Origin: a virus
Length of the DNA: 64,000 nucleotides
IMG/VR virus record: IMGVR_UViG_3300044611_002466
Coordinates: 1-64,000 of that record
Reading direction: 5' to 3' (one strand)
This document shows, one piece after another, positions 8,007 to 58,210 of this stretch. Numbering within the stretch: position 1 is the stretch's first letter; each line of letters opens with the position of its first letter. The position numbers and the translations under genes were made by a program. A model generated the notes under the pieces. The model was given only the letters and a program-made list of their open reading frames with translations, made no database searches and was not told the DNA's origin.

Positions 8007-9038
8007 ATGATGCGCGTTCTCGACATTGCCGACGACAATGGTGCGCTTTTGCTGGCCCAGACTGGGGGCCTTCAGGGACTCGACCGGCACGTAAAGGAGG
8101 CCGCCTGGAGGGAGCCCGGGGTGATGCGCACGCGGGACTACGCGCTCCTCCTCGTCGACACGGACGGGAGGGAGCACGGAAAGTACGCCTGCTACGACCC
8201 GGGCAACACCCTGGTCTCCATGCTGTACCTCCAGAACGCGTACCCCCGGGACCTCAACCCGGCGGCGGCAAAGACGGCAGCCGCCACACTGGCGTCGCTG
8301 GCTGTGGACTGGGGCCTCCCGGTCCCGGAAGGGATCTCGAAGCTGGCCTCCATGGAGCTCTCGGAGGCGGACAGCAAGGACATCATCAGCACCCGGCGCG
8401 TTCGCTACAACCCGCCGAAGCTGGCCGACGCCCCGAAGGCCGCCCCCGGTCCCTTCGAGAAGGCGGCTTCCGCTCGACAGCGCTGGGCCGACCTTGACCC
8501 GTTCGAGCGTCGGGACGTCGCTCGAGAGCTCATCAAGGAGGCGGAGAGCGCCCCCCTCTACATCCCGACCCACTTCTACCAGTACGCGGGGGACCGCCTC
8601 AGCCCGAAGTTCGCAGCGTACATGCGGGAGCGGCAGGACTACACGAGCGACCCGGACGTCGTCGAGGGCTACAAGACCCTCGCGAAGATCGCCGCGGCTT
8701 GCGAGCCGGACAGCGTGGTGCAGTCGCTCTACGTCCTGGACGAGCTGGCTCATCTGCGCTGGGCCGGCGGTGATCGCTACGGGGAGACCCTCGCGGACCC
8801 GGTCCGCTGCGTCTACCACACGGACAAGGTCGCGGCCTACTCGTGGAACCACGGGGCCGAGGCCACGAACGAGAACGAGCTCTTCGTGTTCACCACGCAC
8901 CCTACCGCCGCCTCCCGGTTCCTCGGCGCCTTCACTCCGGAGGTCTGGCAGCGCTTCCGCGCCTCCCCCGTCTCCACCTTCCAGGCCATGCCCCTCGAGC
9001 AGAAGGTCCTGGTGTCTCGCATGGCGCGTGAGGTGTAG
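8007..9038 (+). CDS. Putative virion head protein with KxA motifs
   Basis: 343 aa; AKTAA, SKLAS, EKAAS, DKVAA; heads the portal block. Confidence 0.7.
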   Translation: MMRVLDIADDNGALLLAQTGGLQGLDRHVKEAAWREPGVMRTRDYALLLVDTDGREHGKYACYDPGNTLVSMLYLQNAYPRDLNPAAAKTAAATLASLAVDWGLPVPEGISKLASMELSEADSKDIISTRRVRYNPPKLADAPKAAPGPFEKAASARQRWADLDPFERRDVARELIKEAESAPLYIPTHFYQYAGDRLSPKFAAYMRERQDYTSDPDVVEGYKTLAKIAAACEPDSVVQSLYVLDELAHLRWAGGDRYGETLADPVRCVYHTDKVAAYSWNHGAEATNENELFVFTTHPTAASRFLGAFTPEVWQRFRASPVSTFQAMPLEQKVLVSRMAREV

Positions 9039-9040
9039 CG

Positions 9041-9829
9041 ATGGGGGAAGTCGAGGAGCTCATCAAGCTGCTTGCGGATCCGAAGGCACCGCCCCTCGCC
9101 CTCATGCGAGCGCTCACGCTTCGGTTCGGTGTTGAGTGGTTCTCGTGGGACTATGCCGCGCTGCGCATGACGCTCGAGCGCGAGCTCCATGTGCAGGTCT
9201 CCGCCCAGACGATGAGCAAGATCGCAGGCGGCGCTGCCATCGCGATGAGCGACGCCTTCTGGACCGACTGGGAGCACTTCCACTTCCTCGTCCAGGCCCT
9301 CAACGGGGCGGTGCCTGACCACAAGAACCACCAGGAGCTGTCCGTAGGCATGATGATGCGGGCGGTCCACGTCGCGCAGTCGATCCGAAAGGAGCTCGGA
9401 CGGCTCACGGAGATGGTGCCCTTCTCCGAGGAGGTCTCGCGCTACGTCGCCGCCCAGGCGCTGCAGGCAGGGGTCTGGTACCTGCCGCCTCCCCTGGAGT
9501 TTGCCGCCCACCATGCCAGCGGGCTGAGCTACCGCTGCAAGGACTGCGGCAACGTATCGGCGGTCTTCGTCGACGACGGCCTCTGCGATGTCTGCGTCCA
9601 CCGCTTCGACGTGAGTCAGCTCGGGGCGTGGGCGCCTGACCCAGAGGCGCTCGCCAAGGGCGTCGGCGGCAACATCGAGTTCTTCGAGAAGAACCCGACG
9701 GCCGCTGTCGTGCGCAGGCTCCAGGAGCTACACGACCACCCCGGTCGAACCCTTCAGGAGAGCCAAACGGACATCTGCACCGGGAAGATCCTCGCCGCGG
9801 TAGAGTACGCGCTTCAGGGTCACCCGTAG
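9041..9829 (+). CDS. Hypothetical (probably virion) protein with CxxC pairs
   Basis: 262 aa; CKDC...CDVC; GGTGTAGCG before ATG; between head genes. Confidence 0.7.
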   Translation: MGEVEELIKLLADPKAPPLALMRALTLRFGVEWFSWDYAALRMTLERELHVQVSAQTMSKIAGGAAIAMSDAFWTDWEHFHFLVQALNGAVPDHKNHQELSVGMMMRAVHVAQSIRKELGRLTEMVPFSEEVSRYVAAQALQAGVWYLPPPLEFAAHHASGLSYRCKDCGNVSAVFVDDGLCDVCVHRFDVSQLGAWAPDPEALAKGVGGNIEFFEKNPTAAVVRRLQELHDHPGRTLQESQTDICTGKILAAVEYALQGHP

Positions 9830-9837
9830 GAGCCAGC

Positions 9838-10431
9838 ATGTCAGAGCACCTCATGTACCTCGCCTGCTTTCGCGAGCTGGAGAAGTCCGCCGGGTTCGGT
9901 ACGCGCGCAGCCACATGGGCAGCTGGACACGCCGCGCAGGTGGGTGGTGCTGTGAAGAGCTTCGCCCACGACGTAGGCAGCTCCGCCCTGGGCACGGTGC
10001 GTCCCAGTGCCTGGAAGGCCGGGATTCAGGCCGGAAGGGCGGAGATGAAGAACGGTCCGCTGGCCGCGGGAATGACGGCGCTTGCGGTGCCTCTCACCGC
10101 GGCCGACGTCGTGCACACGATGCGGACGAAGGTGGACCCGGCGACGGGGAGGCAGCTCGGGCTTGGCGAGCGCGCTGCTGTGGCGGCCGGGCATGTGGGG
10201 TCCACGGTCGCTGGGATGCGCTACATGAACATGGCTGGGGGCGGCTTTGTCCGCGGCATCGGTGTTCAGGTAGGCGGCGGCATGATCACCGACGCGGTCA
10301 CCAGCCGGGCCGGGAGGGCAGTCGATAGCCTGGCTGCTCGAAGGTCCCCCAGTGCGGTGGGTGCTCTCGGCGGCTACGCTCACCCCGCGACCGCCGCTGG
10401 CGGGGCGCCAGTCGCCCGCGGAGTCTCATGA
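9838..10431 (+). CDS. Gly/Ala-rich hydrophobic virion protein with KxA site
   Basis: LEKSAG near the N-terminus followed by hydrophobic Gly-rich segments; ATGA overlap with portal. Confidence 0.65.
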   Translation: MSEHLMYLACFRELEKSAGFGTRAATWAAGHAAQVGGAVKSFAHDVGSSALGTVRPSAWKAGIQAGRAEMKNGPLAAGMTALAVPLTAADVVHTMRTKVDPATGRQLGLGERAAVAAGHVGSTVAGMRYMNMAGGGFVRGIGVQVGGGMITDAVTSRAGRAVDSLAARRSPSAVGALGGYAHPATAAGGAPVARGVS

Positions 10432-12521
10432 ACACCTCCACCGATAGTCCTCGTTCCCCTGGACGTACTACCGCCTCTTGGACGAGTCGCGGCTACGGTG
10501 TTCGGTATCCGTCGCCCTTTTTCGACGTCGCACAGCAGTTCCTCCCGGAGAACGTGCACCAGCTGCATCTCTGGTGCCGGTTCTACTTCCTGACGAACCC
10601 GGTCATCAACGTCGCCTGCCAGAAGATGGCGGAGTACCCCGTCACGCCGCTCGTGTGGGAGACCGACGACAGCGAGCTCAAGGCGCTCTACACCAACCTG
10701 GAGGCCCACCTCCGTCTCCGGCAGTTTCAGGTCGAGATCGGGCTCGACTACAACGTCTACGGGAACGCCTTCGCCAGCGTGTTCTTCCAGCTGGAGAAGT
10801 ACCTGGTGTGCAAGAACTGCAGGGAGCGGTACCGTGCGTCGAAGAACCGCAGCAGGTACACGTGGAAGAACGGGCGATTCTTCCTAACCTGTGGCCTATG
10901 CAAGACGCAGGACTACGCCGACCAAGCCGACACCTACCCGCGTAACGTACGCGGGGCCCGTCTCGTACGGTGGAACCCCGAGAACATCGAGATCAAGCAC
11001 AACGAGGTCACCGGCACCAGCCGCTACTACTACCGCCTCCCGCGCAGCGTCACGAACGACGTCCGCCTCGGGGACCCCGAGACGATCGAGACCCTCCCGC
11101 ACCAGTTCCTCGAGGCGGCGCGGACCGGCCGCGTGCTGCTGTTCCACCCCGACAACTTCTTTCACCTCAAGCGCCCGACCATCGCCCAGAAGGATCAAGG
11201 GTGGGGCTCCCCGCTGATCTTCCCGCTCCTAAAAGATGCCTTCTACCTGCAAGTCATGAAGAAGGCGCAGGAGAGCCTGCTGCTTGAGCATGTGGTGCCG
11301 CTGCGGATCGTCTTCCCTGGACCGACCACCGGAGGCAACGACGGGCCTTTCGGTGCGTACAACCTGTCCAACTGGAAGCAGAAGATCGACACCGAGCTGG
11401 CCATGTGGAAGCGGGACCACAACTACATCCCGATCATGCCGATGAACATCGGGTTCCAGCAGATCGGCGGGCAGGCCAAGGCACTCATCCTGCACCAGGA
11501 GTTCCGCATCCACGCAGAGCAGATGCTCGCGGGCGCCGGCATCCCGGTGGAGTTCGTGTACGGCGGACTCCAGTGGAGCTCCTCGAACACCTCACTGCGT
11601 GCGCTGGAGAACACGTTCCTCGGCTACAACATCGAGCGCTTCAACCTCACGCGCTTCGTTGTCGACAAGGTCGCGGCGCACATGGGCTGGAGGACCTGCC
11701 CGTTCCGCTTCGAGAAGTTCCGCATGGCGGACGACCTCCAGCGGGCCATGTTCTACCTCCAGCTCAACCAGGCAGAGAAGGTCTCGGACCAGCGCCTGCT
11801 CGAGGAGGTTGGGGAGGACTGGGAGACCGAGAGCGAGCGCATCACGGGGGAGCGCGCGAAGAAGATCGATGCGCAGCGGAGGACGCAGCTGGCGACGGCC
11901 GAGATCCAAGGAGCCGCCCTGCTCCGAACCTCCCGCTACCAAGCCAAGGCGAACGAGCTGACGATGCTCGCTCAGAACAACGCGCAGATGCAGATCCAGA
12001 GCGACCAAGCCGCCGCCGGCATGGTCGCCGCACCAGGAGCACAGCCTGCAGGTGCGGCGCCCGGCGCAGCTGCTCCGCCCGCAGCAGAGGCGCCCGCCCA
12101 GGGCGACGCGGCCGCTGCGGGGCAAGACGGTGGTGCTCCCCCGCCCGTGGACCCCAACGCGGCGCTCCCAGAGGGCGGCCCTTCCGTGTACGCGGAGAAC
12201 GCGGGAGCTCCAAACGCATCCGCCGCCCCCACGGCGATGGGTGGGCTGGAGTCGCCCCTGCGCGTGGGTCAGGGAGGGATGGACCTTCGGTACATCGCAC
12301 AGCGCGCGGTGGCCTACCTACGCACGGTGGAGAGCCAGAACGGGAAGCAGGCCATGCTTCAGGAGCTCGGCAAGCTCCAGCTGGAGAACCCACCCGTCTA
12401 CCAGCTCGCCGTGCAGCTGCTGAACAACACCGGCGCGGTGGCAGACCCCCTAAACGCGACCACATCGCCCATCACTCCGAGATCCGCCTCGCAGCGGGAT
12501 GCCAGCCGTACCATAGGATGA
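10428..12521 (+). CDS. Portal protein
   Basis: YPSPFF...WCRFYFLTNPVIN.ACQKMAEYPVT N-terminus, WGSPLIFPLLKDAFYLQVMKKAQE helix, coiled-coil and low-complexity tail; 697 aa; head-gene context. Confidence 0.7.
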   Translation: MNTSTDSPRSPGRTTASWTSRGYGVRYPSPFFDVAQQFLPENVHQLHLWCRFYFLTNPVINVACQKMAEYPVTPLVWETDDSELKALYTNLEAHLRLRQFQVEIGLDYNVYGNAFASVFFQLEKYLVCKNCRERYRASKNRSRYTWKNGRFFLTCGLCKTQDYADQADTYPRNVRGARLVRWNPENIEIKHNEVTGTSRYYYRLPRSVTNDVRLGDPETIETLPHQFLEAARTGRVLLFHPDNFFHLKRPTIAQKDQGWGSPLIFPLLKDAFYLQVMKKAQESLLLEHVVPLRIVFPGPTTGGNDGPFGAYNLSNWKQKIDTELAMWKRDHNYIPIMPMNIGFQQIGGQAKALILHQEFRIHAEQMLAGAGIPVEFVYGGLQWSSSNTSLRALENTFLGYNIERFNLTRFVVDKVAAHMGWRTCPFRFEKFRMADDLQRAMFYLQLNQAEKVSDQRLLEEVGEDWETESERITGERAKKIDAQRRTQLATAEIQGAALLRTSRYQAKANELTMLAQNNAQMQIQSDQAAAGMVAAPGAQPAGAAPGAAAPPAAEAPAQGDAAAAGQDGGAPPPVDPNAALPEGGPSVYAENAGAPNASAAPTAMGGLESPLRVGQGGMDLRYIAQRAVAYLRTVESQNGKQAMLQELGKLQLENPPVYQLAVQLLNNTGAVADPLNATTSPITPRSASQRDASRTIG

Positions 12522-12524
12522 CCC

Positions 12525-13373
12525 ATGTTCAAGACCGCCAGTGAGGTGTACGAGACCTACGAGCGCGCCCGTATTGCGTTCGAGAAACAGGCCTACGGGG
12601 AGGCCGAGCACGCGGAGCTGGCGGGCATGGCCTCCAGGGCAGTGGGGAAGGGCGCGCCATCTCCCGCGGTAGCTGGGACGATCCAGAAGGGCGCGCTGAA
12701 GGTCGACCAGGGGATTCGGCATCCCTGGCTGCCGCACACCGACCCCCTACACTCCTTCCCGGGCTCGCAGACCAAGGCCATGGTCGGAAGAAATGTCGTG
12801 CAGAAGCAGGACATGGCAGTCCGCGACATCTCCAAGTCCATCGCTACGCGAGGGTCTCCCCTGTCCGGCGCACGGGCACATCGGGGTCTGATGAATCTGG
12901 GCGAGGGCCACCATCAGATGATGGACATCAGCGCGCACACGGACAAGCCAGCACTGGAGGGCAAAGCCTCTCGCCTGCGCGGAGCCCTGAAGGGGCGCGA
13001 GGTTGGGTACGGTGGCGGTGTGGTCTCAGGGCGCGAGCACGGACACTCCGGGTTGACGCGCGAAGGCACGACGCTGCACGCTGACCTCGATCGTCTGCGC
13101 CCTGACTCGTCTGCTGTGGATCGCCAGGCGATTGCGCGGTCGGAGCGTTTCGGGGCGACCGTGGCTAAAAAAGTGGAGGCGCGCCTGGTCTCGCACCACG
13201 GCATGCACCCGACCGAGGCAGCCGAGCACGCCTCTCACTTCTTCCAGCAGATGCACGCCCCGAGCCGCCCCAGCCAGTTGGTCGGGGAGGCATCGAGGAC
13301 GGCACGCTACTTGGGTGGCGAGGTCTCCCGCGCCGGCTCTGCCGTACGCGGAGTACTCTCTCGCTTGCGCTGA
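12525..13373 (+). CDS. Hypothetical virion protein with KxA motifs
   Basis: Begins MFKTAS...FEKQAY; His/Arg-rich. Confidence 0.65.
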   Translation: MFKTASEVYETYERARIAFEKQAYGEAEHAELAGMASRAVGKGAPSPAVAGTIQKGALKVDQGIRHPWLPHTDPLHSFPGSQTKAMVGRNVVQKQDMAVRDISKSIATRGSPLSGARAHRGLMNLGEGHHQMMDISAHTDKPALEGKASRLRGALKGREVGYGGGVVSGREHGHSGLTREGTTLHADLDRLRPDSSAVDRQAIARSERFGATVAKKVEARLVSHHGMHPTEAAEHASHFFQQMHAPSRPSQLVGEASRTARYLGGEVSRAGSAVRGVLSRLR

Positions 13374-14143: not shown

Positions 14144-14160
14144 GGATGTGGAGCTCTTCT

Positions 14161-41439: not shown

Positions 41440-41463
41440 TTTCACCTCGGATGCTGGCGAGAG

Positions 41464-43284
41464 ATGCCAGTACCTTCTTATGACGAGAAGATGAGTCCAT
41501 TTAACGCGTCGGACCCCCTAAGCAGCGCATCCGTGATCAGGCAGCCGTCGGAGGACCGCCTGCTCGAGGAGTACCCCAGCCCCTGGGACTTCGAGCCTCC
41601 GACGCCAGACGCCTCACCGTGGGAGTACGCGAACGCGCTGCAGGACGCCGAAGATCTGATCGAGGTCTCCCCGTCCCAGTTCGTCGAGACCTCGATCTTG
41701 ATGCCAGATGCGGTGTCGAAGACCCTCGTGCCCTTCGATTTCAAGGAGCGCCCGTACCTGCGCCACATCTATGACACGCCGAGCAAGCGCATCCTGTTGA
41801 TGTGCGCTCGGCAGGTCGAGAAGAGTACGACTCTGGGGAACCGGATCCTCGCAGTCTCCTGCATCATCCCGCACTTCCGCACGCTCTACGTGTCTCCGTC
41901 GGCACAGCAGACTCAGGAGTTCAGCAAGACGCGTATCCGCGAGCTGCTCGAGACCTCTTCCGACCTCCGAAGGTGGTTTCCGTCGCACATGACGGACAAC
42001 GTGTTTGAGAAGCGCGCGATCAACCGAAGCACCGTGACGCTGCGGTACGCCTTCTTGAACGCGGACCGCTGTCGCGGACTGCGCGCGGACCTGGTGGCGT
42101 TGGACGAGATCCAGCACATCCACCTCGAGAACATCCCCGTCATCGAAGAGGCCGCATCCCACTCCCCGTACCGGAACTTCATCTACTCGGGCACCCCGCT
42201 CACGCTCGACAACCCGATGGAGCACTACTGGTCGAACTTCTCCACGCAGAACGAGTGGGTGGTGCCGTGCGAGCGCCACGGGGTGCCGAGGGATCCCGGC
42301 TCCTGGCACTGGAACATCCTCGCAGAGGACAACATCGGAAAGTTGGGCCTTATCTGCGACAAGTGTGGCGGGAGAATCAACGCGGCGCACCCGAAGGCGC
42401 AGTGGGTGCCCATGGGCTCCCCCGACCCTACGTTGAGCATCTTCGAGGGGTACCGCATCCCCCAGTTGATGGTTCCGTGGATCGAGTGGAAGGACCTCTT
42501 CACGAAGTACATAAACTACCCGCGCGCGATGTTCTTCAACGAGTGCCTCGGGCTCTCGTTCGACAGTGGGCAGCGGCCGCTGTCGGCGGCCGACATCCAG
42601 GTGAACTGCGATGAGAGGCAGCGCCTCGGTCCCGAGGCCGTGAAGCTATGGCGCGAGAAGCTGGCCGGCGTCCCCCTCTACGGAGGCATCGACTGGGGGC
42701 AGGACAGCTCGAAGTCCTACACCGTGATGAAGGTCGGGGGCTACCTCGAGGGGAAGTTCCGCGTCATCTTCGCGCACCGCTTCGTGGGCGCCGAGTCGGA
42801 CATCCGCGCGCAGATGGACAAGATCTGCCGCATCATCGACACTTTCCAGCTCGCGCGAGTCGGTGTCGACTACGGGGGCGGGCTCCACCCGAACGACGAG
42901 CTCCTGCGGAAGTACGGATCGCAGCGCATCGTGCGCTTCCAGTACTCGACGCCCAGCGTCTACATGAAGTGGGACGCACAGCTGGGGCGCTACGTCATCC
43001 ACCGCTCGGAGGTGATGTCGGCGATCTTCAACGCCATCAAGCGCGGGAACGTCTTCCGCTTCCCATCCTGGAAGGACTTCGCTCAGCCGTTCGCGGCGGA
43101 CATGCTCTCGATCTTCTCGGAGTACAACGAGTTCATGCACATGACGCAGTACAAGAAGACCCCAAACAACACCGACGACTCGTTCCACGCGCTGTTGTTC
43201 ATGACGTGCGCCTCGATGCTGGACGTTCCCCGTCCGGACATCTTCGTCCCGAGTGCGATGATCGACCAGCGCTTGGCGGGCTAA
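41464..43284 (+). CDS. terL: Terminase large subunit (start uncertain: 41464 or 41491)
   Basis: MCARQVEKSTT Walker A, RCRGLRADLVALDEIQ Walker B, YSGTP, GGIDWG, VDYGGG, TDDSFHA nuclease motifs. Confidence 0.9.
   Translation: MPVPSYDEKMSPFNASDPLSSASVIRQPSEDRLLEEYPSPWDFEPPTPDASPWEYANALQDAEDLIEVSPSQFVETSILMPDAVSKTLVPFDFKERPYLRHIYDTPSKRILLMCARQVEKSTTLGNRILAVSCIIPHFRTLYVSPSAQQTQEFSKTRIRELLETSSDLRRWFPSHMTDNVFEKRAINRSTVTLRYAFLNADRCRGLRADLVALDEIQHIHLENIPVIEEAASHSPYRNFIYSGTPLTLDNPMEHYWSNFSTQNEWVVPCERHGVPRDPGSWHWNILAEDNIGKLGLICDKCGGRINAAHPKAQWVPMGSPDPTLSIFEGYRIPQLMVPWIEWKDLFTKYINYPRAMFFNECLGLSFDSGQRPLSAADIQVNCDERQRLGPEAVKLWREKLAGVPLYGGIDWGQDSSKSYTVMKVGGYLEGKFRVIFAHRFVGAESDIRAQMDKICRIIDTFQLARVGVDYGGGLHPNDELLRKYGSQRIVRFQYSTPSVYMKWDAQLGRYVIHRSEVMSAIFNAIKRGNVFRFPSWKDFAQPFAADMLSIFSEYNEFMHMTQYKKTPNNTDDSFHALLFMTCASMLDVPRPDIFVPSAMIDQRLAG
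41477..41484 (-). promoter_or_regulatory. Candidate phage promoter motif GTCATAAG (copy 4)
   Basis: Heads the 36.6-41.4 kb minus block; overlaps the terL 5' region. Confidence 0.55.
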
Positions 43285-45183: not shown

Positions 45184-46101
45184 ATGGCCCACTTCTACGA
45201 AGTGACAGAGCACTCCCTGCGGGACTTGTCCTCGCGGGCCGTTGCGCTTTGCCGCGGCTCGCATCCTGAAGGGCCGTGCTCTCCGACGGACGCCGTCATC
45301 AAGGTGGCATCCTCGTTCAGCGACGCACAGCTCACGAATGAGCACATCAAGCGCATTTGTGAGATGACGTACCACGGCATCTTCGAGCAGCGCTTCCAGG
45401 ACAGCACTGGCGGAGACCGGATGATCGCCTTCGACCCCCCTGATGCAGAGAAGGCGGCCAGCGCGCTGCGCGTGCGTCGCCTCGACTCCTTCGCGAAGGC
45501 GGCGTCGGCCTCCCCCGGGAGGGTGGAGACGGGGATGAACAAGAACGCGGATGCACCCCGCCGGCTCGGCCCCCCGGCCCTCACCAACGCGTTCAGCGCT
45601 GCCATGGGCACCTTCAAGGCAGACGAGACCGCGATGCGGAAGGAGGCGCTCTCCACACTTCGACACCTCCACGGGCAGTTGAAGGAGGCGACCGCGTCGC
45701 TTCAGGTCGAGGTCTCCACCGCCGACAGCTCCGAGAAGGTGGCCTTCCTGGACTTGCTCGATGGTGCCGTGCACGCCACCCGACAAGGGGCCACCGCGAC
45801 CGAGGTGACCTCGGTCTGTCTCGAGCTCGCCAAGCGGGCTGGGGTCGACGACGAGCTCGTGCTCTCAGGCCTCGCTACCGACCTGCTGCGCGGACTCGAC
45901 CAGCGTGGTGTCCTCCAGCGCGGGGAGAAGGTGGCCAGCCTGAGCGGCTTGTCCGCGAACACGCGCCACCCGCTGTGTGCGAAGGTGGAGAAGGTGGCCA
46001 GCCTCCGGGGCTACAAGCTCCACGGGGAGATCGCGCTACAGGACCTGCGCCAGCAGATGCACCGAGTGGACCAGGAGATGAAGGATGGCCGCTACCGGTA
46101 G
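45184..46101 (+). CDS. Head protein with 8 KxA motifs
   Basis: IKVAS, EKAAS, AKAAS, NKNAD, RKEAL, EKVAF, EKVAS x2; TATACT 40 nt upstream. Confidence 0.75.
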   Translation: MAHFYEVTEHSLRDLSSRAVALCRGSHPEGPCSPTDAVIKVASSFSDAQLTNEHIKRICEMTYHGIFEQRFQDSTGGDRMIAFDPPDAEKAASALRVRRLDSFAKAASASPGRVETGMNKNADAPRRLGPPALTNAFSAAMGTFKADETAMRKEALSTLRHLHGQLKEATASLQVEVSTADSSEKVAFLDLLDGAVHATRQGATATEVTSVCLELAKRAGVDDELVLSGLATDLLRGLDQRGVLQRGEKVASLSGLSANTRHPLCAKVEKVASLRGYKLHGEIALQDLRQQMHRVDQEMKDGRYR

Positions 46102-46369
46102 TGCCCCGCAGGGCCCCCTCACGGAGTGGGCAAAGTCCGCTGGTCTCATCTCCGACGGAGCCACCGCGGCCGGCCGCGGCTTGAGCGCGTTGGGCAAAGG
46201 CGTCTGGCGGGCCGCGGGCGTAGCAGCCCCTAACCCCATCGCACGTGCAGGACTCATCGGTGCGAGCGGCCTCGCCCTCAAGACGCAGGTCCCGCAGCTT
46301 GCCGGGCGTGCGACCCAGGACTACCACTACGCCCACGGTACCACTCCAGCTACGAGTCGAGGATTCTGA
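46085..46369 (+). CDS. Small Gly/Ala-rich head protein
   Basis: WAKSAG followed by a hydrophobic segment; TGATG coupling to the next gene. Confidence 0.65.
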   Translation: MAATGSAPQGPLTEWAKSAGLISDGATAAGRGLSALGKGVWRAAGVAAPNPIARAGLIGASGLALKTQVPQLAGRATQDYHYAHGTTPATSRGF

Positions 46370-47358: not shown

Positions 47359-49248
47359 ATGGACAAGTACTTCCAGCTCCACGGGAAGGTCGCCGATGGG
47401 CGCCCGCTGATTCACCTGGTGGAACCCGGCTCGAGGTATGGGGCGGGCGAGTCTGCTGGCCTGCAGAAGGTCGCCAACGGGGAGCATCTGCCTGAGGTGC
47501 TGGAGCTCATCGAGGCCATCCAGCCACAGCCGGATCGCATCTACCTCGTAAACAGCGCACTCGGCGCCGGCGAGTACGTGGGCTTCAACCTGCGCGGTGA
47601 CTGGTTCGGGGAGAAGGGCCTGCTCCACACCCCGCCAGGGTGGGATCGGATCCCGGTGTGGGATGTGGAGGCGCGGCGACGCGCGGCGAGTGCGACTGCG
47701 CAGGCCGGAGAGTGGGGCTCCCTGGCGTGGGGCTACCCCACGTTCATGAACGCACACCGGTTTCGCCACCATGTGAACAAGGACCCAGAGAGGGCGTACG
47801 GCTACGTTCTCGGGGCGTTCTGGGACGCACGCATGCACCGCGTGGTCCTGGTCTCCGAGCTGGTCCGCGACATGTGCATGCGCCTGGGCGCAGTGGATCT
47901 CTACGATCGCATCGCTGGCGGGGAGTTCCCCGATACCTCGATGGGCGCGAAGGTGCCGTACGATCGCTGCTCGATCTGCAACCACTACGCACGCTCGCCC
48001 GCAGAGTACTGCCTCCACGTACGTCAGGGCGCACCGCCCCCCTACGGAATGCGTTCGATCCTCCGCGACGGACGCATGTGCGGCGTCTACAACGACTACC
48101 CGCGGTTCTTCGATGACTCGTTCGTCTTCGTGGGGGCGGAGCGGTCGGCCAAGATGCTGGCCAACATCACCTCGCGACTGCGAGGCTCCTACCCCTACAC
48201 GAACCAGCTGTACCAACCGGGGGCGTTCGTCTCGACACGAGACGCCACCGCCGCTGCCGTCACGTCCCCCCTTGATGAGCGCAGCGAGGGGCTGGGCCTC
48301 GCCGTGGCCCGCGTCCTCAACTCCAGGGTACGGGGACCGACGGAAGGTCGAGTGGGTGAGGCCATCTCGCAGGCGCTGTCCGCCTTCCCGACGAAGGACG
48401 ACGCCGAAGCAAAGGCTCTTCGGCATGCCGAGGAGTCCCTGCGTCGACGAGCCGCAGTCACGGATGGCACAGTCTCGGAGGATGAATACAGGTTCTGGGA
48501 GGGCAATGCCTCCAAGGACCTGACCATCACGCACGGGGTAACTACCGCGCAGAGGGACCGGGCGATTGCCCTTCTGCGCTCCCGGATGGATCAGAGCGTC
48601 GAGAAGGTCGGAACGCTGGCAAAATGGGCCACTTTGACGAAGCGGCTGTCCGTACCGAGCGCGGCCCAAAGCGCCCTCCTTCGGGATCATGTGGGCCGGC
48701 TGTCGCCCGTGCTGCCGCAGCAGGTGTACGACGCGTGCAGCTCCTCGGTGCCTGGCATGTGGGGCGGACTGTCCGACCTGTCTGCGCTCGGCGTCGTCCT
48801 TCGTCCGGAGGAGTTCCAGCAGTGTGCGCTGCGTGGAATGGGCGAGGACGCGCTGCAGGAGCGCTGCACGCGGGAGGGACTTCGCTTTCAGAGCACCCCG
48901 CGGGACCCCTACCACGAGCCCCGCTGGATTCCATCCGACCCAAGACCGGGCAATCTACAGCTCCTGACGCGGGCCCTGGGCGCGATGGTTCGGGAGCGCT
49001 CGTTTGCCCCCGCCGTTGTGCAGATGCGCATCCAGGCACCCCCGCCCACTCGAGCCGACAATCCAGGAACCGCCCTGGATCACCCGATCTTGAATCAGGT
49101 GTCTCAGCTGTATAATGACTACCGGATGGGGCTGTTGACGCGGAGCATCCCCCAGGGGTATGTATCGGTGGACGTCCACAGCGCGGGTAAGACCGCTTCG
49201 ACAGCAGAGGCAGTCTCCACTCTCCTCTTCCATCTTGCGTACTGGTAG
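47359..49248 (+). CDS. Prohead maturation protease (assemblin/HK97-like serine protease fold)
   Basis: FRHHVN (His), DTSMG (Ser), FFDDSFVFVGAERSA (equivalent of E.S.V..PA...A); CSIC...C.H insertion. Confidence 0.7.
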   Translation: MDKYFQLHGKVADGRPLIHLVEPGSRYGAGESAGLQKVANGEHLPEVLELIEAIQPQPDRIYLVNSALGAGEYVGFNLRGDWFGEKGLLHTPPGWDRIPVWDVEARRRAASATAQAGEWGSLAWGYPTFMNAHRFRHHVNKDPERAYGYVLGAFWDARMHRVVLVSELVRDMCMRLGAVDLYDRIAGGEFPDTSMGAKVPYDRCSICNHYARSPAEYCLHVRQGAPPPYGMRSILRDGRMCGVYNDYPRFFDDSFVFVGAERSAKMLANITSRLRGSYPYTNQLYQPGAFVSTRDATAAAVTSPLDERSEGLGLAVARVLNSRVRGPTEGRVGEAISQALSAFPTKDDAEAKALRHAEESLRRRAAVTDGTVSEDEYRFWEGNASKDLTITHGVTTAQRDRAIALLRSRMDQSVEKVGTLAKWATLTKRLSVPSAAQSALLRDHVGRLSPVLPQQVYDACSSSVPGMWGGLSDLSALGVVLRPEEFQQCALRGMGEDALQERCTREGLRFQSTPRDPYHEPRWIPSDPRPGNLQLLTRALGAMVRERSFAPAVVQMRIQAPPPTRADNPGTALDHPILNQVSQLYNDYRMGLLTRSIPQGYVSVDVHSAGKTASTAEAVSTLLFHLAYW

Positions 49249-49306: not shown

Positions 49307-50377
49307 ATGAACCCCCTCAGCCAGGCCCTCGAGCAGCACAACATCACCCCCGAGGACCTGGAGAAGGCCGCAGGTGTGCGGATCTTCCAGAAGGTCGCGG
49401 CCGCCGAGGGCATCGACCTCGCCCAGCTCTCCGATGCGCAGATCGAGGAGCTCTTCGCCCACTTCGAGGCCAGCGTCCTTCCGGAGATCGTCGGCGGCGA
49501 GCCCAGCACCGAGGCCAAGGTGGCATCCCTGAGCCAGGAGGAAGTCTTCGACCTCTTCGACAAGCAGGCCGCCGCTGAGGGCCTCGATCTCTCCGACGCC
49601 TCCGAAGAGCAGCTCGTCGCCGCCCTCGGGTACTTCATGGAGAACGTCCTCCCGGCGATGGCCGAGAACGGCTTCGAGCCCGTCGGCGCGGAGAAGAGCG
49701 CGGAGGCCGAGGAGGCCCAGGCCAAGCTCGCCGAGGCCGACATCCTCGGCCGGCAGATGGCGCGCGGCTACATGGACGAGATCGGCAAGATCGCGGGAGC
49801 GGGGGACGCAGCCAAGGCCCTCCTCTCGCGCGGCGCGGCCGCTGTTCGCCAGGGCGGCCACCTGCTCAGCGGGAAGAAGCTCCAGGGTGCCGGTGCCGCT
49901 GCTCTCGGCGCCGGAACGGCCGCTCTCGGTGCCGGTGGTGCGGCCCTCGGCGCCAAGAAGCTGATGGGCAGCAAGAAGGAGGCCGGTGCCCCCGCCCCCG
50001 CCATCTCGCTCAGCGCCGAGGACGTCGAGATCCTGCAGCAGCTCTCGGAGTCCGGGGACCTCGCCGGCCTGCAGAAGGCGGCCGGCATCATCAAGAACGC
50101 GGCCGCGGCGCAGATCGGCTCCGCCAAGCCCGGCATCGGCGAACGCATCCGGGGCGCCGCGTCGCGGGGCGTCGCCCTTGCGCGGGCGCACCCTCGGGCC
50201 GCTGCCGGTATCGCGGTCGGCGGCGCCGCCGCCACCGGTGGCGCCGCCGCCCTCGCTCATCGCATGAAGTCGAAGTCCACGGAGAAGGACGCCAGCGCCG
50301 CCCTTGATGTCCTGGTCGAGGAGCGCGCCGCGGAGCTCGCCTCGGGCTGGCTCACCGACAACGGCTACGGCTCGTAG
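49307..50377 (+). CDS. Head scaffold/internal protein with more than 10 KxA motifs and an internal duplication
   Basis: EKAAG, QKVAA, AKVAS, DKQAA, EKSAE, AKLAE, GKIAG, KKEAG, QKAAG, EKDAS. Confidence 0.75.
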   Translation: MNPLSQALEQHNITPEDLEKAAGVRIFQKVAAAEGIDLAQLSDAQIEELFAHFEASVLPEIVGGEPSTEAKVASLSQEEVFDLFDKQAAAEGLDLSDASEEQLVAALGYFMENVLPAMAENGFEPVGAEKSAEAEEAQAKLAEADILGRQMARGYMDEIGKIAGAGDAAKALLSRGAAAVRQGGHLLSGKKLQGAGAAALGAGTAALGAGGAALGAKKLMGSKKEAGAPAPAISLSAEDVEILQQLSESGDLAGLQKAAGIIKNAAAAQIGSAKPGIGERIRGAASRGVALARAHPRAAAGIAVGGAAATGGAAALAHRMKSKSTEKDASAALDVLVEERAAELASGWLTDNGYGS

Positions 50378-50379: not shown

Positions 50380-50580
50380 ATGCTGCCGCTGTCACAGCTG
50401 AGGGTGTTTGCGGGGGAGGTGGGCAAGCTCGCCGGACTCACCACGCACCCAGCCGTGGCAGCGGGCGCAACAAAGCGGTTGCTGGGTTCGACCCCCTCCG
50501 CGCCTACGTCAGGGCTCGCGCAGACGGCCAAGATCACATCTCCCGCGGCCCTCGTTGCTCCTCCCAACACCTTCGCCTGA
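50380..50580 (+). CDS. Small head protein
   Basis: VGKLAG; tight packing. Confidence 0.55.
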   Translation: MLPLSQLRVFAGEVGKLAGLTTHPAVAAGATKRLLGSTPSAPTSGLAQTAKITSPAALVAPPNTFA

Positions 50581-50590: not shown

Positions 50591-51841
50591 ATGTCCGTAC
50601 AGCAAATCGTCAACGAGGCCCTGCAGCGCGCACGCTCCACGGCCGGAGGCGGTACCGGTACCGCTGCCACCAAGACCGCTTCGGCCGAGGACGCCCTGAT
50701 CAAGACGGCGCATCAGCTGGCGGACGCCAACGAATGGATCGCGCTCAGTGCGGCCGACGACGGCACCGCTGGCGGACGAGCCCGCCGAGGGCTCGTCGAG
50801 AACTTCTTCAAGAGTGCCGGAGGCGAGAAGGTCCCCGGCCCGGTGCAGAGCGAGTCTCCCACCGGCACCCAGGCGGTGCCTCCGCAGTCTGGCGCGAAGA
50901 AGATCCTGCCGCTCGGCAAGGCCAGCGGTGACTCCCCGGAGGAGTCGGGTGCGCCGACCGGCACCCAGGCCACTCTGGACCAGACCGGCACCAAGAAGGC
51001 CGGCATGACGCTGCTGGACGCGATCACCAAGAGCGCGGACACGTCGGCCATTCCCGGCCCCAAGCAGAGTGTGGCCGGCGAGAACGCCGCGGCCCCGCCG
51101 CCGAAGAACGAGAACACCAACATCGGTGCCCTTCGCTCTGCTGAGGGAATGGTCTCCATGACGCGGAGGGAGGCGAAGGCCCCCACGCGAGATCGCCTGA
51201 AGCAGCTCTTCGCCCACGCCGGAGACACCGGCCCCTCGAGCGCCGCGGCCCAGGCCGCCTTCCCCAACGCCTACGCCAAGGGAGGGATGAAGGAGGCAGC
51301 CGCCGACCCGCGTGACGCGATCGACGACAAGCTGCTCGGTGAGTCCAAAGCCTCCATGCGGGAAAGCGGCATCAAGGCCGTGAACACGGCCGGTCATGCC
51401 GGTCGTGGGGCGGTCCATGGTGCCTTGGGCGGGGCCGCTGGCGGAATCCTGGCTGGCAGTGGCGTCGGTCTTGGCGTTGGCGCCCTTGGCGGCGCCCTCT
51501 CCCAGGGCGCTCGTGCACGTGGCGGTCTGGGCAGTCGTCTTGCCGGCGCTGGCCTCGGGGCCCTTGTCGGCGGGGCCGCCGGCGGGGTCACTGGAGGCAT
51601 GATCGGTGCCGTGCCCGGGGGCCTTGCGGGCGGTATCTCTGGCGGCATCAGCGGGCATCGAGCCGGTCAGCGAGAGCAGCGCGCCATGGATGCCGCCGAA
51701 GCCGCTCACGAGAAGCTCGATGCACGCGAGAAGAAGGCCTCCGTCTCCGACTACGCCAAGCTCGCCTCCCTCGCGGAATCTGGTAGCCTCGGTGACGCGG
51801 CTCGAGAGCTGATCCGCTTCGCGGATGGCCTCGTCACCTGA
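50591..51841 (+). CDS. Head internal protein with KxA motifs and a long glycine zipper
   Basis: TKTAS, IKTAH, FKSAG, KKAG, TKSAD, MKEAA, KKAS, AKLAS; GxxxG tract. Confidence 0.75.
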   Translation: MSVQQIVNEALQRARSTAGGGTGTAATKTASAEDALIKTAHQLADANEWIALSAADDGTAGGRARRGLVENFFKSAGGEKVPGPVQSESPTGTQAVPPQSGAKKILPLGKASGDSPEESGAPTGTQATLDQTGTKKAGMTLLDAITKSADTSAIPGPKQSVAGENAAAPPPKNENTNIGALRSAEGMVSMTRREAKAPTRDRLKQLFAHAGDTGPSSAAAQAAFPNAYAKGGMKEAAADPRDAIDDKLLGESKASMRESGIKAVNTAGHAGRGAVHGALGGAAGGILAGSGVGLGVGALGGALSQGARARGGLGSRLAGAGLGALVGGAAGGVTGGMIGAVPGGLAGGISGGISGHRAGQREQRAMDAAEAAHEKLDAREKKASVSDYAKLASLAESGSLGDAARELIRFADGLVT

Positions 51842-52074
51842 TGCTGTCCCAACTCCTCCAGACCATCGAGAAGCGCGCGGGTACGGACCCCCAGGCTGCT
51901 GCGTTTCGCGCGCTCTCGGTACTCCCCAAGGCGGCGTCGGCCGATGATCTCTCCGTGGAGACGGACGAGGAGGGACGGGCACGCCGAGTGGGAGAGTTCT
52001 TGCGCCGACGCAACTCGAGCGGGCTGTTGAACGGTTCCGCCTCCCCCACACCCCCGAAGGACACCGCTCCATGA
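51841..52074 (+). CDS. Small head protein
   Basis: IEKRAG, LPKAAS; coupled by overlaps on both sides. Confidence 0.6.
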   Translation: MLSQLLQTIEKRAGTDPQAAAFRALSVLPKAASADDLSVETDEEGRARRVGEFLRRRNSSGLLNGSASPTPPKDTAP

Positions 52075-52445
52075 GTTCCGAAGTAGACGGCGTCACCGCC
52101 GTTGCCGCGCAGTCGGCAACCGTGCTGCGTCAGCTGGCGACCAAGTGCGCCTCCCAGGCTGTCGAGCTCACTGCCCTTCGCGAGAAGGTGGCGAATCAGG
52201 ACCGTGCGGAAGAGATCCGCGGTCTTGCGAGGGAGATGGAGGCACGCGGGCTGTCCCCCGAGCTTGCGATGGACGAGAAGATCGCGGCCATCTCGAAGTA
52301 CCCCGACCTCACCCTGGTGCGTGAGTCGATCAAGCTCGCCGGCGGTGGTCGTCTCGACATGGCGCGGGTGGAAGAGTCCTCAACCCCTTCCACCGCCGGC
52401 GCCGACAACGAGTTCGTCCAGTACTGCCTCGGGTACCAATCCTGA
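52071..52445 (+). CDS. Putative scaffolding protein
   Basis: Coiled-coil; ATKCAS, EKIAA, IKLAG; short C-terminal helix FVQYCLG; immediately before the decoration/MCP genes. Confidence 0.55.
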   Translation: MSSEVDGVTAVAAQSATVLRQLATKCASQAVELTALREKVANQDRAEEIRGLAREMEARGLSPELAMDEKIAAISKYPDLTLVRESIKLAGGGRLDMARVEESSTPSTAGADNEFVQYCLGYQS

Positions 52446-53100: not shown

Positions 53101-54267
53101 ATGAGCATGATCGAAGGCGCTGGCTCCGCCGGAGCCATGAATGCCGGCTTCATTGAGCGGCTCGAAAGCGACGGGGCGACCAAGTGCGCCGCGCAGAGCC
53201 TCAACTTCATCCGGGACCGCATCCGCGAAGGGTGCTTCACGGACATGATCATCCCGAACGAGCGTGTCGTGCGCGGCGATCTGCAGCGCTCCACCGAGCA
53301 CGACGGCCTCGTGCGGATCGTGGACATCGAGCCCGGCTCCCGGGCGATGGCGTGCACCTTCCGCGGGCAGCCCGAGACCACCTACGTCTCCGGCAAGCGC
53401 TTCGCGATCGGCTTCTCCACCGTCTCGAGTCTCAAGTTCGAGATCGTCGAACAGGAGCTCATGGCCTACGAGATGCCGGTGACGCGCATCATGGAGGAGA
53501 ACTCCCTCAAGGACATGGTGGAGGTCAAGGACCGCACCTTCCTGGGCCACACCGAGACCTCCGTGGAGGCCATGCAGGAGGAGGCCAACGGCTCCGTTGT
53601 CGGCTTCAACACCAGCAACGTGAACGCGGGAACCTGTCTCGAAGTCTCGAAGGTCAAGGGGTCCATGGCCCTCCAGATGGCCTCCGACAACTTCGTCGTC
53701 AAGGCGATCCAGCGCCCGGACATCGTCAAGATCAAGCGCCTCCTGAAGCGCGTGATCACCGACGGCTCCGGGAACATGGTCCGGCGTGGCCGCCTGCGCC
53801 CCGAGGTCATGCTCGCCTGCGAGTCGGACATCGACGAGTTCGACTCCTGGACGCACGAGGACCTGGGCTCCAAGCTGCAGTCCGAGACCATGGTGGACGG
53901 CTGGAGCTACGCCAAGGCGATCGGCCTGCGCATCGTGAAGACGATCAAGAACGACCTCCTCCGGGAAGGGAACATCTACGTCTTCACCAGCGCGCAGTAC
54001 TTCGGCCGGAACTATACGTTGAATGACGTGAAGTTCTACATCGACAAGGTCGCGAACCGCATCTCGTGGCAGGCGTGGATGGACATCGGCATGGGCATCG
54101 CGAACATCGCCTCGGTGGTGAAGCTCGAGCTCTACTCCGGGTCCGTCACCACCGGAGACACCGACAGCGGCTACGCCGCTGCCATCCCGGTGGAGATCGA
54201 AGACATGGGCGGGGTGAACAACAAGGTGGCCGAGGGCCTCACCTTCCCGCACATCTCCCTCTACTGA
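53101..54267 (+). CDS. Major capsid protein (HK97-fold expected)
   Basis: 388 aa; very strong GC3 bias; RDRIREGCF..IIP N-arm, VRIVDIEP, E-loop-like FRGQP; followed by a strong terminator. Confidence 0.75.
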   Translation: MSMIEGAGSAGAMNAGFIERLESDGATKCAAQSLNFIRDRIREGCFTDMIIPNERVVRGDLQRSTEHDGLVRIVDIEPGSRAMACTFRGQPETTYVSGKRFAIGFSTVSSLKFEIVEQELMAYEMPVTRIMEENSLKDMVEVKDRTFLGHTETSVEAMQEEANGSVVGFNTSNVNAGTCLEVSKVKGSMALQMASDNFVVKAIQRPDIVKIKRLLKRVITDGSGNMVRRGRLRPEVMLACESDIDEFDSWTHEDLGSKLQSETMVDGWSYAKAIGLRIVKTIKNDLLREGNIYVFTSAQYFGRNYTLNDVKFYIDKVANRISWQAWMDIGMGIANIASVVKLELYSGSVTTGDTDSGYAAAIPVEIEDMGGVNNKVAEGLTFPHISLY

Positions 54268-56130: not shown

Positions 56131-56131
56131 C

Positions 56132-56902
56132 ATGGAGACCCCCTGGACCACCCGAGTCTCGCTCGAGCACCGCATCGCTGCGGCCGACCTGTGGATGGAG
56201 TTCACGGGCCGCAAGAATGCGTCCGCCCCGGGGTCCATCAAGGAAGCAAACGGCGACATGGTCGCGGACCAGAAGGCGCCCAGCCGCGGCCTCGGGGCCC
56301 CGGCACGCGGAGCTCTCGCCGGAGGGGTAACGGGTGCGGGTCTCGCGGGGGTCGCGACGCACTACGCCAACAAGGGACTTGCGGCGGGAGCTCCACGCAT
56401 CTCGCGTGGCTTGGCTGCGCTCGGAGGCGGGACTGTTGGCGCGGGGGTTGGGGCTACGCTCGGGGCGGGCTACCTCATCCACAAGGCGATGAAGGCACAC
56501 ACTGACGCGTCGACGAAGACAGGATCCGCCGCCGAGTCGATGCTCGTGTACCTGCGCTCCCACCCGCGTGCCGCCGCCGCCGTTGGCGCCGCCCTGCTTG
56601 CCACGCCAGCAGCGGCAGGGGGGTACCTCCACGAGAAGGCCCGGCACACGGCCGGCGGAGGCGGGAAGAGCAAGTACGAGATCGACAACGCCCTGGAGCT
56701 GGAGAAGCACCGAGCTCACACGGAGCACGCGGGCACGGACTCCGCCGTGTCGAAGTTGAAGGAGAAGTACCTGCGCATGAAGGAGCGAGCAGGGGTGGAG
56801 GCACGGGAAGATCCTCGCCGCGCTGCTCTCTACGGGGCTCTGCCGTACGGACTGCTCGCGGGGACGACTGGCGCCACGCTCGTACCCCGGCTGCTTCGGT
56901 GA
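56132..56902 (+). CDS. Gly-zipper protein with KxA motifs
   Basis: RKNAS, IKEAN; several GxxxG hydrophobic segments. Confidence 0.65.
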   Translation: METPWTTRVSLEHRIAAADLWMEFTGRKNASAPGSIKEANGDMVADQKAPSRGLGAPARGALAGGVTGAGLAGVATHYANKGLAAGAPRISRGLAALGGGTVGAGVGATLGAGYLIHKAMKAHTDASTKTGSAAESMLVYLRSHPRAAAAVGAALLATPAAAGGYLHEKARHTAGGGGKSKYEIDNALELEKHRAHTEHAGTDSAVSKLKEKYLRMKERAGVEAREDPRRAALYGALPYGLLAGTTGATLVPRLLR

Positions 56903-57789
56903 GGTTCACCGGCCTACAGGTATCCGGCTTCAGCCGGCGCTATCACGACATCGACTGGGAGATCGCGCCCACCCACGATGACATGCAGGAGTGGGAGTTC
57001 TTCGTCGAGCGCTCCGAGTCCGAGGCGGGGCCCTGGCTCACCATCGCCGGCCCCATCATCGACCGCTACTACGTGCGGGACAACACGACTCCGCAGATCT
57101 CCATCAACCGCACGCTCTTCTACCGAGTGCGCGCAGAGAACCGCTCCCGCGGCCTCAACGCGGTCTCCCCCGTAGCGGATCGCGAGGGGTCTCCGGACCT
57201 CATCGCGGTTGAGATTGCGAGCCTGGAGCACCTCCTCTTCACGGAGTTTACCGGGACGCGCTCGTGGCTGTTCACCCGGCGTACGTTCGGGCAGCGATGT
57301 CCGCAGTGCTGGGACGATGTCCTCTCCAAGGTCACCGACGACTCGTGCCCCACGTGCTTCCGAACGGGCTTCTCTGGGGGGTACCACTACCCGATCGAGT
57401 TTTACGCCCAGTTTGACCGGAGCCCGTCGGTCGAGAACCTGACCACGTTCGACCACCACCAGCTGAACACGCAGACGTTTCGGTGCACGGCTTCTCCGAA
57501 GATCACGCCGTCATCGCTGATCATCGACCACAAGAACCAGCGGTTTCGGGTGATCGCGGTCTCATGTACGTCGCGCCTCGGTGTTGGTGTGCACCAGGAA
57601 GTGCAGGTAGCGCAGCTCCAGCCCGGCTCGATCGAGGACGCCATTGAGCTGAAGGTCGAACACCGTGGGCTGGCGCTGGCTGGGCCACGGAACTACACAA
57701 ACCCGCAGAACGTAGAGGCTGCAGGCTCCTCGGCCAACTCGCCGGAGCTGGACGCGCTACTGGCGGGCTACGGGTACAGCGATGCGTGA
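56899..57789 (+). CDS. Putative head-closure/neck 2 protein
   Basis: FGQRCPQCWD...CPTCFRTGFSGGY Zn insertion; beta-rich. Confidence 0.6.
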   Translation: MRFTGLQVSGFSRRYHDIDWEIAPTHDDMQEWEFFVERSESEAGPWLTIAGPIIDRYYVRDNTTPQISINRTLFYRVRAENRSRGLNAVSPVADREGSPDLIAVEIASLEHLLFTEFTGTRSWLFTRRTFGQRCPQCWDDVLSKVTDDSCPTCFRTGFSGGYHYPIEFYAQFDRSPSVENLTTFDHHQLNTQTFRCTASPKITPSSLIIDHKNQRFRVIAVSCTSRLGVGVHQEVQVAQLQPGSIEDAIELKVEHRGLALAGPRNYTNPQNVEAAGSSANSPELDALLAGYGYSDA

Positions 57790-58210
57790 CAACGAGCTCC
57801 TCGATCGGATGCGCGACCAGCCTGGGTACAAGAAGTACCAGGAGGCCGCCGCGAAGACCCCGCGCTCGCAGTACCCGTGGGGGACGCTCCTCGCCAACGT
57901 GGGAGGGATCGCAGTCGCGCATACGGCCGGGTACGTCAGCGCCGGTGCGCTCGCCTCGCTCCTCGCGTCGTCCCGTGTGGGGGAGCGCTTCGCGCGGCTC
58001 CCCCACACGACGCAGCTCAACGCCATCGCACACGCGGTCTCGATCGCAGGCTCCGTCGGGGTGGTTGCATCCGGCTTGGCGCGCATCGCGGGGCAGCTAC
58101 GAGTCGCCGAGGAGATCTCCCGCATGGAGAAGGAGCGCGCGGCGGCGTCGAGTGAGAAGGTCGCCTCGGTCTACTTCGTGTACGAGCAGGCGCTCCGAGC
58201 GCTCCAGTGA
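57782..58210 (+). CDS. Hydrophobic protein with C-terminal KxA site
   Basis: Two hydrophobic segments; SEKVAS. Confidence 0.65.
   Translation: MRDNELLDRMRDQPGYKKYQEAAAKTPRSQYPWGTLLANVGGIAVAHTAGYVSAGALASLLASSRVGERFARLPHTTQLNAIAHAVSIAGSVGVVASGLARIAGQLRVAEEISRMEKERAAASSEKVASVYFVYEQALRALQ

Follow-up and report, generated by a model that had tools for sequence, protein, structure and literature searches.

Lys-x-Ala as the probable cleavage code of a prohead protease in a clade of large phages

Capsid maturation proteases and the K-x-A locus

Serine proteases of the assemblin/gp21 fold share a conserved catalytic pair, His and Ser, with about 50-55 residues between them. In bacteriophage T4, gp21 acts on gp22, gp67, gp68, gp23, gp24 and the internal proteins; short N-terminal leaders are removed from packaged proteins, and gp21 processes itself. 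Herpesvirus assemblins cut (V/L/I)-x-Ala|Ser and target the scaffold and themselves. A further system of this kind is probably encoded in the first 64 kb (64,000 nucleotides, here the window) of the virus record IMGVR_UViG_3300044611_002466, a complete IMG/VR virus of 188,230 bp and 66% guanine-cytosine (GC) content. Based on sequence statistics and on analogy with the described enzymes, the motif Lys-x-Ala followed by a small residue (K-x-A, or K.A) is likely the code for cleavage by the prohead protease that the phage itself encodes, the product of open reading frame (ORF) 47359. ORFs are named here by the position of their first nucleotide.

Compared with T4 (gp21, PDB 5jbl), the locus has a similar layout: the protease gene lies in the head module with scaffold/core genes after it, and a three-residue P3-x-P1 code is over-represented in the core proteins, which the scan described below also recovers for T4. 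The T4 code is (L/I)-x-Glu|, whereas the motif here is Lys-x-Ala and lacks Glu at the predicted P1 position. Gp21 has 212 amino acids (aa), whereas ORF 47359 encodes 629 aa with a long C-terminal region, and no sequence homology between them is detectable. The assemblins of varicella-zoster virus (VZV, PDB 1vzv), Kaposi's sarcoma-associated herpesvirus (KSHV) and human cytomegalovirus (HCMV) share the predicted P1 Ala and P1′ Ser, and are the best structural matches in two independent searches. In contrast to assemblin substrates, P3 is Lys and not aliphatic, and dozens of sites are spread over many proteins instead of the two sites R and M; sequence similarity is absent, and the virus is bacterial.

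The prohead protease of SPN3US cuts A-x-E with a preference for Ser at P1′, its motif occurs in several copies in propeptides, and enzymes of the phiKZ/SPN3US type cut themselves (PMC10052503). The present locus resembles the phiKZ gp175 and SPN3US gp245 systems in its many motif-bearing head proteins, multi-copy motif and Ser after the site. As in those phages, a multisubunit-type RNA polymerase is found among the virion genes, here and in the proteome of the related Salmonella phage Arash (PMC10585845). The motif of phiKZ and SPN3US is, however, (S/A/G)-x-Glu|, and the propeptides of their major capsid protein (MCP) and portal span 111-254 residues, whereas the MCP leader here has about 30. 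The MCP of this clade is closest to gp27, the MCP of phage G (PMC12484599), and not to that of phiKZ. Literature searches for a Lys-x-Ala phage protease code returned only the Glu-type motifs of T4, phiKZ and SPN3US. Judging from the sequences, this is most likely a prohead protease system of known type with a new, assemblin-like specificity, following a rule not described for the phages studied so far.

The virion block occupies the plus strand from 8 kb onward, and the head module spans 45-54 kb with the MCP gene at its end. Genes are ordered TerL (41344), 45184, 47359 (protease), the motif-rich 49307, 50591 and 52071, and MCP (53101), and relatives keep the same order. The protease gene thus sits within the head module, upstream of scaffold-like genes and the MCP gene, as in a prohead protease system. 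The principal genes are as follows.

8007..9038, + strand: protein of 343 aa adjoining the portal cluster; 11 of 14 Lys in K-x-A, spaced ~25-30 residues apart
33368..34882, + strand: protein of 504 aa; 11 sites around a site-free conserved core (~residues 86-299)
45184..46101, + strand: head protein of 305 aa; 10 of 15 Lys in K-x-A; five sites kept in 10-15 of 15 relatives, with flank identity of 0.10-0.37
47359..49248, + strand: predicted head-maturation (prohead) protease of 629 aa; PHROG 18299; catalytic domain at ~residues 45-290
49307..50377, + strand: Ala-rich scaffold/core-like protein, its gene directly 3′ of the protease gene; 11 K-x-A sites
50591..51841, + strand: Ala-rich head protein of 416 aa; eight K-x-A sites with marginal enrichment, four of them conserved in 13-17 of 17 relatives
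52071..52445, + strand: small scaffold-like protein of 124 aa; 4 of 5 Lys in K-x-A; sites kept in 10-14 of 14 relatives
53101..54267, + strand: MCP, 388 aa, identified by tblastn to the annotated Arash MCP

Enrichment of K-x-A in head proteins

K.A emerges from a scan in which the motif was not chosen beforehand. When all 1,600 residue pairs with gaps of 0-3 are counted in the unselected block at 45.1-53.0 kb of the window, K.A ranks first (43 against 17.0 expected, z 6.3). In the 10 kb upstream of the MCP gene, K.A is first in 10 of 14 metagenomic relatives, with K..S usually second; in genes downstream of MCP it is mostly at expectation, with the exception of the relative L030 (z 3.4). The cultured relatives in the phage collection are limited to Arash and the Vibrio phages D69, D181 and D148, whose MCP identity is about 24%. 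K.A is the top pair both in the annotated genes of Arash (44 against 19.8) and in D69 (50 against 20.8), where tail genes are depleted.

The same scan of T4 gp67, gp68, gp21 and gp22 serves as a positive control. I.E and L.E, the experimentally established gp21 code, are two of the three top pairs in these proteins and are at expectation in T4 tail proteins, so the scan finds real protease codes; the K.A signal here is stronger than T4's own. In the head module of Bacillus phage G (L061, 12-25 kb) K.A gives no clear signal (z 2.9, rank 6). The phage G MCP contains no K.A, and its protease gp19 is borderline (8 against 2.5) and the only such protein in that module. The code is therefore a property of the Arash-like clade, and seems to have arisen within it or to have been lost outside it.

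Enrichment per protein was assessed by 5,000 composition-preserving shuffles and binomial tests over 193 genome-wide ORFs, called by a codon-usage model with manual additions; the start of ORF 50591 was taken from homologue alignments. Ranks 1-5 of the binomial test are held by ORFs 8007 (11 K.A observed, 2.0 expected, p=1e-7), 45184 (10 and 2.0, p=2e-6), 33368 (11 and 3.0, p=7e-5), 49307 (11 and 4.6, p=2e-3) and 52071 (p=2e-3), three of which pass Bonferroni correction. Enrichment is marginal or weak for 12525, 50591, 51841 and 47359. Across the substrate set, 62 K.A are observed where 18.6 are expected, and the rest of the genome matches its expectation (210 against 210.7). Related pairs are not enriched in this comparison (R.A 19 against 24, K.G 6 against 11.9, K.S 5 against 8.5), which makes the signal specific to Lys and Ala. 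Internal repeats were considered as a cause and rejected, as the substrates have no self-hits and no underlying tandem repeats. In five relatives, the homologues of 8007 are all enriched (p 1e-3 to 2e-7), as are those of 33368; one out-of-frame ORF of L050 was left aside.

An earlier note on this DNA, made from the sequence alone, had reported more than 60 K-x-A sites in about 16 motif-rich head ORFs. The count in those ORFs is in fact 79, but enrichment is confined to about five to nine of them (five strong, about four weak). The shuffling comparison proposed in that note accordingly came out mixed: the five strong ORFs exceed composition, and six of the listed ORFs do not. Its remark that replication, tail and RNA polymerase proteins carry only scattered sites is borne out, with K.A at or below expectation in the RNA polymerase (12 against 15.3), the sheath (2 against 3.9) and a DnaB-like helicase (4 against 3.2). 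The starts it had chosen for 45184 and 50591 also fit the homologues better than the longest ORFs do.

In 8007, 45184 and 52071 nearly all Lys residues fall inside the motif, while Arg is plentiful. This GC-rich genome appears to keep Lys there almost exclusively at positions that the motif requires.

Motif anatomy and conservation

A collection of 463 sites from ten non-redundant head modules yields the clade consensus [M/F/L]-E-K-[T/V/I]-A-S-A. Two residues before the Lys, Met is enriched 2.8-fold, Phe 2.7-fold and Leu 2.0-fold, in agreement with the hydrophobic flank noted earlier. Ser directly after the Ala, at +3 from the Lys, is enriched 4.2-fold, and Pro and Gly are depleted near the sites. 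With a flank matrix trained only on relatives of at most 71% MCP identity, K.A sites of the window's head set score a median of +2.0 bits, against -1.6 for other K.A in the genome (Mann-Whitney p 1e-12).

Conservation was followed in four substrate families, using alignments with 14-22 non-redundant homologues. Identity at the motif Lys is 0.53-0.82, compared with 0.04-0.23 for other Lys, and at the motif Ala 0.56-0.89, compared with 0.25-0.36 for other Ala; identity at the middle residue does not rise above background. The flanks are only about 0.3 identical where the Lys and Ala positions are conserved at 0.5-0.9. In the 45184 protein, site 146 is kept in 15 of 15 relatives with a flank identity of 0.10. 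Other sites turn over inside linkers. Judged from these alignments, purifying selection is acting on the motif Lys and Ala. The motif is therefore both over-represented and conserved, and the conserved copies include those of the MCP N-terminus and of the protease, which is the pattern of a prohead protease system.

N-terminal leaders and the major capsid protein

Most ORFs that are not enriched as whole proteins still have one N-terminal K.A[SAG]. Of the 35 virion-block proteins, 11 have the motif at residues 9-45; 2,000 shuffles average 1.7+/-1.3 and never exceed 7. The rest of the genome has it in 7 of 158 proteins, with 5.5 expected (Fisher p 2e-5). This leader statistic rescues 9838, 31092, 46085, 46369 and 56132 as candidates for a single leader-removal site. 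No shared leader sequence 5′ of the first site, of the T4 capsid-targeting type, is obvious by eye. Smaller candidate substrates and the predicted MCP site are the following.

9838..10431, + strand: protein of 197 aa; single N-terminal site K16-S-A-G
12525..13373, + strand: protein of 282 aa; five sites, all in the N-terminal half, with weak enrichment (p=0.014)
46085..46369, + strand: Gly/Ala-rich protein of 94 aa; one N-terminal K17-S-A-G, not enriched overall
50380..50580, + strand: Gly/Ala-rich protein of 66 aa; N-terminal leader ending at K16-L-A-G
51841..52074, + strand: protein of 77 aa; K-x-A at residues 11 and 30
53182-53190, + strand: predicted MCP maturation site K28-C-A30|A31, at the conserved N-terminal K-x-A

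Relatives retain the N-terminal K-x-A of the MCP at identities as low as 36% (15 of 16 non-redundant), and one locus has K-L-N in its place. The sequence ATKCA, which the earlier note had seen in both the MCP and the putative scaffold, is present at MCP residues 26-30 (with K28) and at residues 23-27 of ORF 52071, where it ends the leader. As a whole protein, the MCP is not enriched in K.A (3 observed, 1.4 expected). Its profile matches phage G gp27 (PDB 6wkk) in two stretches with E 1.1e-4, which supports HK97-fold homology; the AlphaFold2 model of the MCP (predicted local distance difference test, pLDDT, 55) does not have the quality that a fold search or placement of the site would require.

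A leader of similar kind is seen outside the window in a relative. L056 (G000:C1:68147-70207) encodes a 686-aa protein with the InPase domain PF18823 at residues 57-180, preceded by a 29-residue leader that ends in a high-scoring K-Q-A-A. The InPase domain PF18823 is typical of polyvalent virion proteins. The L056 protein is thus a candidate packaged enzyme, judging from its sequence.

The protease encoded by ORF 47359

The family of ORF 47359 is large, metagenomic and unannotated. The window protein matches PHROG 18299, 'head maturation protease', with E 5.4e-5, as do 20 of 25 family members (best E 4.2e-10). Four positions of the protein are central to its interpretation.

47467-47475, + strand: K-x-A at protease residues 37-39, kept in 20 of 21 relatives
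47770-47772, + strand: His138, invariant in the family alignment
47938-47940, + strand: Ser194, invariant in the family alignment
49189-49197, + strand: K-x-A at protease residues 611-613, kept in 15 of 21 relatives

All 25 sequences of the alignment have His138 and Ser194, separated by 56 residues; T4 gp21 has His85 and Ser140. Active-site motifs are a typical position for intein insertion. In homologues of ~1,010-1,046 aa (L006:2657-5797, P0002, P0006, P0030, P0031 and P0054) the invariant Ser-Met-Gly is followed immediately by an intein with Hint/LAGLIDADG Pfam domains (DTSMG|C...HN|S), a position that speaks for Ser194 as the active-site residue.

An AlphaFold2 model of residues 1-330 (pLDDT 65, predicted template modelling score 0.62) has residues 1-41 disordered. 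The ten best Foldseek matches are all KSHV protease, followed by T4 gp21 and the proteases of HCMV, Epstein-Barr virus and herpes simplex virus, with E from 0.008 to 0.8. In the VIA all-against-all aligner, VZV protease comes first (Z 6.2, 121 residues aligned, root-mean-square deviation 4.1) and T4 gp21 second (Z 5.7, 128 residues, 4.0), ahead of HCMV (Z 4.4) and KSHV (Z 4.3). These scores form a consistent family signal, yet stay below the level that excludes chance. The best reading of the model is that ORF 47359 may be a serine protease of the herpesvirus-assemblin/T4 gp21 fold. Its assignment as a protease in the earlier note is upheld by the PHROG match and by top fold matches that, although weak, are consistently herpesvirus assemblins and T4 gp21. 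The conserved K-x-A motifs at the end of the disordered leader (residues 37-39) and at residues 611-613 give the layout expected of self-processing.

ORF 31092 and its Dps-like module

One motif-bearing virion protein helps to place the scissile bond.

31092..33371, + strand: multi-module virion protein of 759 aa; N-terminal leader site K24-V-A, not enriched overall
Residues 559-665 of ORF 31092, + strand: ferritin/Dps-like domain, the C-terminal module (Pfam PF00210, E 2.8e-7)

The Dps-like domain is bracketed by K542-Q-A and K746-T-A-S. In the relative G005 (L069:1495-1998), the module is a separate gene of 167 aa with its own ribosome-binding site, the start of which aligns two residues after the K-Q-A of ORF 31092, and the C-terminal K-V-A-S is kept. 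The position of K-Q-A next to the aligned start of the free-standing gene favours a cut after Ala. Together with the P3-x-P1 register of T4, phiKZ and herpesvirus assemblin, this gene boundary suggests that the scissile bond would follow the Ala throughout. A Dps-like protein would be an unusual candidate for head cargo.

A proposed maturation pathway

Inside the assembled prohead, the co-assembled protease would cut after the Ala of K-x-A. It would remove the MCP leader of ~30 residues, trim itself at both ends, and remove short N-terminal leaders of 16-40 residues from a set of virion proteins. The unstructured scaffold/core proteins 8007, 45184, 49307, 50591 and 52071, along with the ends of 33368, would be cut into peptides of mostly 6-68 residues. 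These peptides may exit or stay loose in the head, freeing space for DNA, as in T4 and phiKZ.

Cutting at every site would break 8007, 45184, 49307 and 52071 into pieces of 6-68 residues and leave 33368 with a core of ~217. ORF 49307 is predicted to be largely unstructured: its ESM Atlas model is poorly structured (pLDDT 0.48), and an ESM Atlas search with it gave chance-level matches only. Short predicted fragments from proteins that look unstructured point to scaffold/core shredding in the manner of T4 and phiKZ, and not to the release of folded cargo. The earlier picture of dozens of small capsid-packaged modules is thus unlikely for most substrates; module release survives only for the Dps-like part of ORF 31092, with its gene boundary at K-Q-A.

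Proposed cleavage and its alternatives

Most likely, by analogy with the described systems, the motif is cut and ORF 47359 is the cutter. The K-x-A|S-specific protease proposed in the earlier note stands in so far as the motif behaves like a protease recognition code, with conserved sites at the N-terminus of the MCP and at each end of the protease; the cleavage itself we infer.

Several observations weigh against this reading. The flanks of the MCP site are poor by the clade matrix (score -0.5), the MCP leader preceding it is well conserved, and a conserved K-V-A at MCP residue 316 lies inside the folded core; not every K-x-A can then be cut, and accessibility must matter. Six of the 16 ORFs (9838, 31092, 46085, 46369, 56132 and 57782) show no whole-protein enrichment over shuffles. 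The protease model is middling (pLDDT 65) and its fold matches score low, with Z ~6 and a best Foldseek E of 0.008. ORF 47359 has no Pfam match at E<=0.1, which leaves it outside Peptidase_S77, S21 and S78, and hhalign gives a probability of 0.2% for T4 gp21, that is, no similarity. Searching PDB sequences with a profile of the protease family likewise found no protease and no meaningful match. The only virion proteome for a relative, that of Arash, is trypsin-based and reports coverage, peptide and spectrum counts without peptide lists (PMC10585845).

The alternative that fares best, although unlikely, is that K-x-A-S is an uncleaved short linear binding motif, a packaging tag that recruits proteins into the prohead by contact with the capsid interior, the portal or the scaffold. 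Conservation, flank preferences and N-terminal placement would look alike under such a role, which would also suit the conserved MCP leader before the site. At least ten copies per protein at ~25-residue spacing would, however, be unusual for docking and are typical of scaffold shredding, as the T4 control illustrates. The motif also occupies classical maturation positions, at both protease ends and the MCP N-terminus, and a small residue right after the Ala fits a protease cleft.

Cleavage by another enzyme, either from the host or a second phage protease, or at another bond such as after the Lys, is improbable too. In its favour, the tie between ORF 47359 and the motif is sequence-based, and the bond is drawn from analogy and one gene-boundary case. 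Against it, the motif is common to phages of Salmonella and Vibrio and to phages of unknown host whose genomes have 47-68% GC, and such a range of hosts suggests that the reader is encoded by the phage. Wherever a locus was examined, the 47359 family and the motif were found together, and PHROG and Pfam profile scans reveal no further protease in the head module.

That the pattern is a functionless by-product of Ala-rich helical composition, coiled-coil periodicity or internal repeats is very hard to credit: although the substrates are Ala-rich (12-23%), composition-keeping shuffles fail to reproduce it, R.A, K.G and K.S are not enriched, other Ala-rich proteins (31092, sheath 59017) are at expectation, repeats are absent while site-specific conservation is present, and the signal persists in relatives of widely differing GC, including Arash and D69.

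Other features of the window

Two further virion genes are assigned by similarity and lack K-x-A enrichment.

10428..12521, + strand: portal protein, by tblastn to the annotated Arash portal (E 2e-74); K.A 5 observed, 2.8 expected, not enriched
41344..43284, + strand: large terminase (TerL), PHROG 675 (E 2e-53) and Pfam GpA_ATPase; K-x-A not enriched

The RNA polymerase is encoded by ORF 14146-23067 (+ strand, 2,973 aa), in which beta-type domains are fused to beta-prime-type domains. Rpb2 domains 3 and 6 are found at residues 361-944 and Rpb1 domains 2 and 5 at residues 1371-2348, and an intein with a LAGLIDADG endonuclease lies at ~residues 1511-1923. Unlike this fused protein, the beta and beta-prime subunits of Arash are encoded by separate genes. 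ORF 59017-63504 (+ strand, 1,495 aa) is recognisable only in its C-terminal tail-sheath domain (PHROG 279, residues 1321-1493), and its length is unusual for such a protein.

Significance of a Lys-x-Ala code

New to this work are the extension of the motif to two cultured phages, the calibration on T4, the N-terminal-leader statistic, the intein adjoining the presumed catalytic serine, and the gene-boundary case of ORF 31092.

A broader possibility, to be regarded as tentative, is that the proteases of the whole clade, large and mostly uncultured phages of 120-200 kb that include Arash and D69, share a new specificity (Lys at P3, Ala at P1, Ser at P1′) and that the leaders act as capsid-targeting tags for loading and releasing diverse cargo. 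The Dps/ferritin-like module and the InPase-domain polyvalent-type protein would be candidate cargo. As part of the same tentative proposal, the predicted specificity may lie closer to that of herpesvirus assemblin than to the Glu-specific enzymes of T4 and phiKZ. As two members are cultured, Arash on Salmonella Typhimurium ATCC 14028 and Vibrio phage D69, the reading is directly testable.

If true, the K-x-A code would define a third specificity class among capsid proteases of the assemblin/gp21 fold and connect a bacterial virus with the Ala|Ser rule of herpesviruses. It would also provide a sequence rule that predicts mature virion, scaffold and packaged-cargo proteins across a large and almost wholly uncultured clade. 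Like the T4 capsid-targeting sequence, the leaders could act as tags with which foreign proteins are loaded into capsids.

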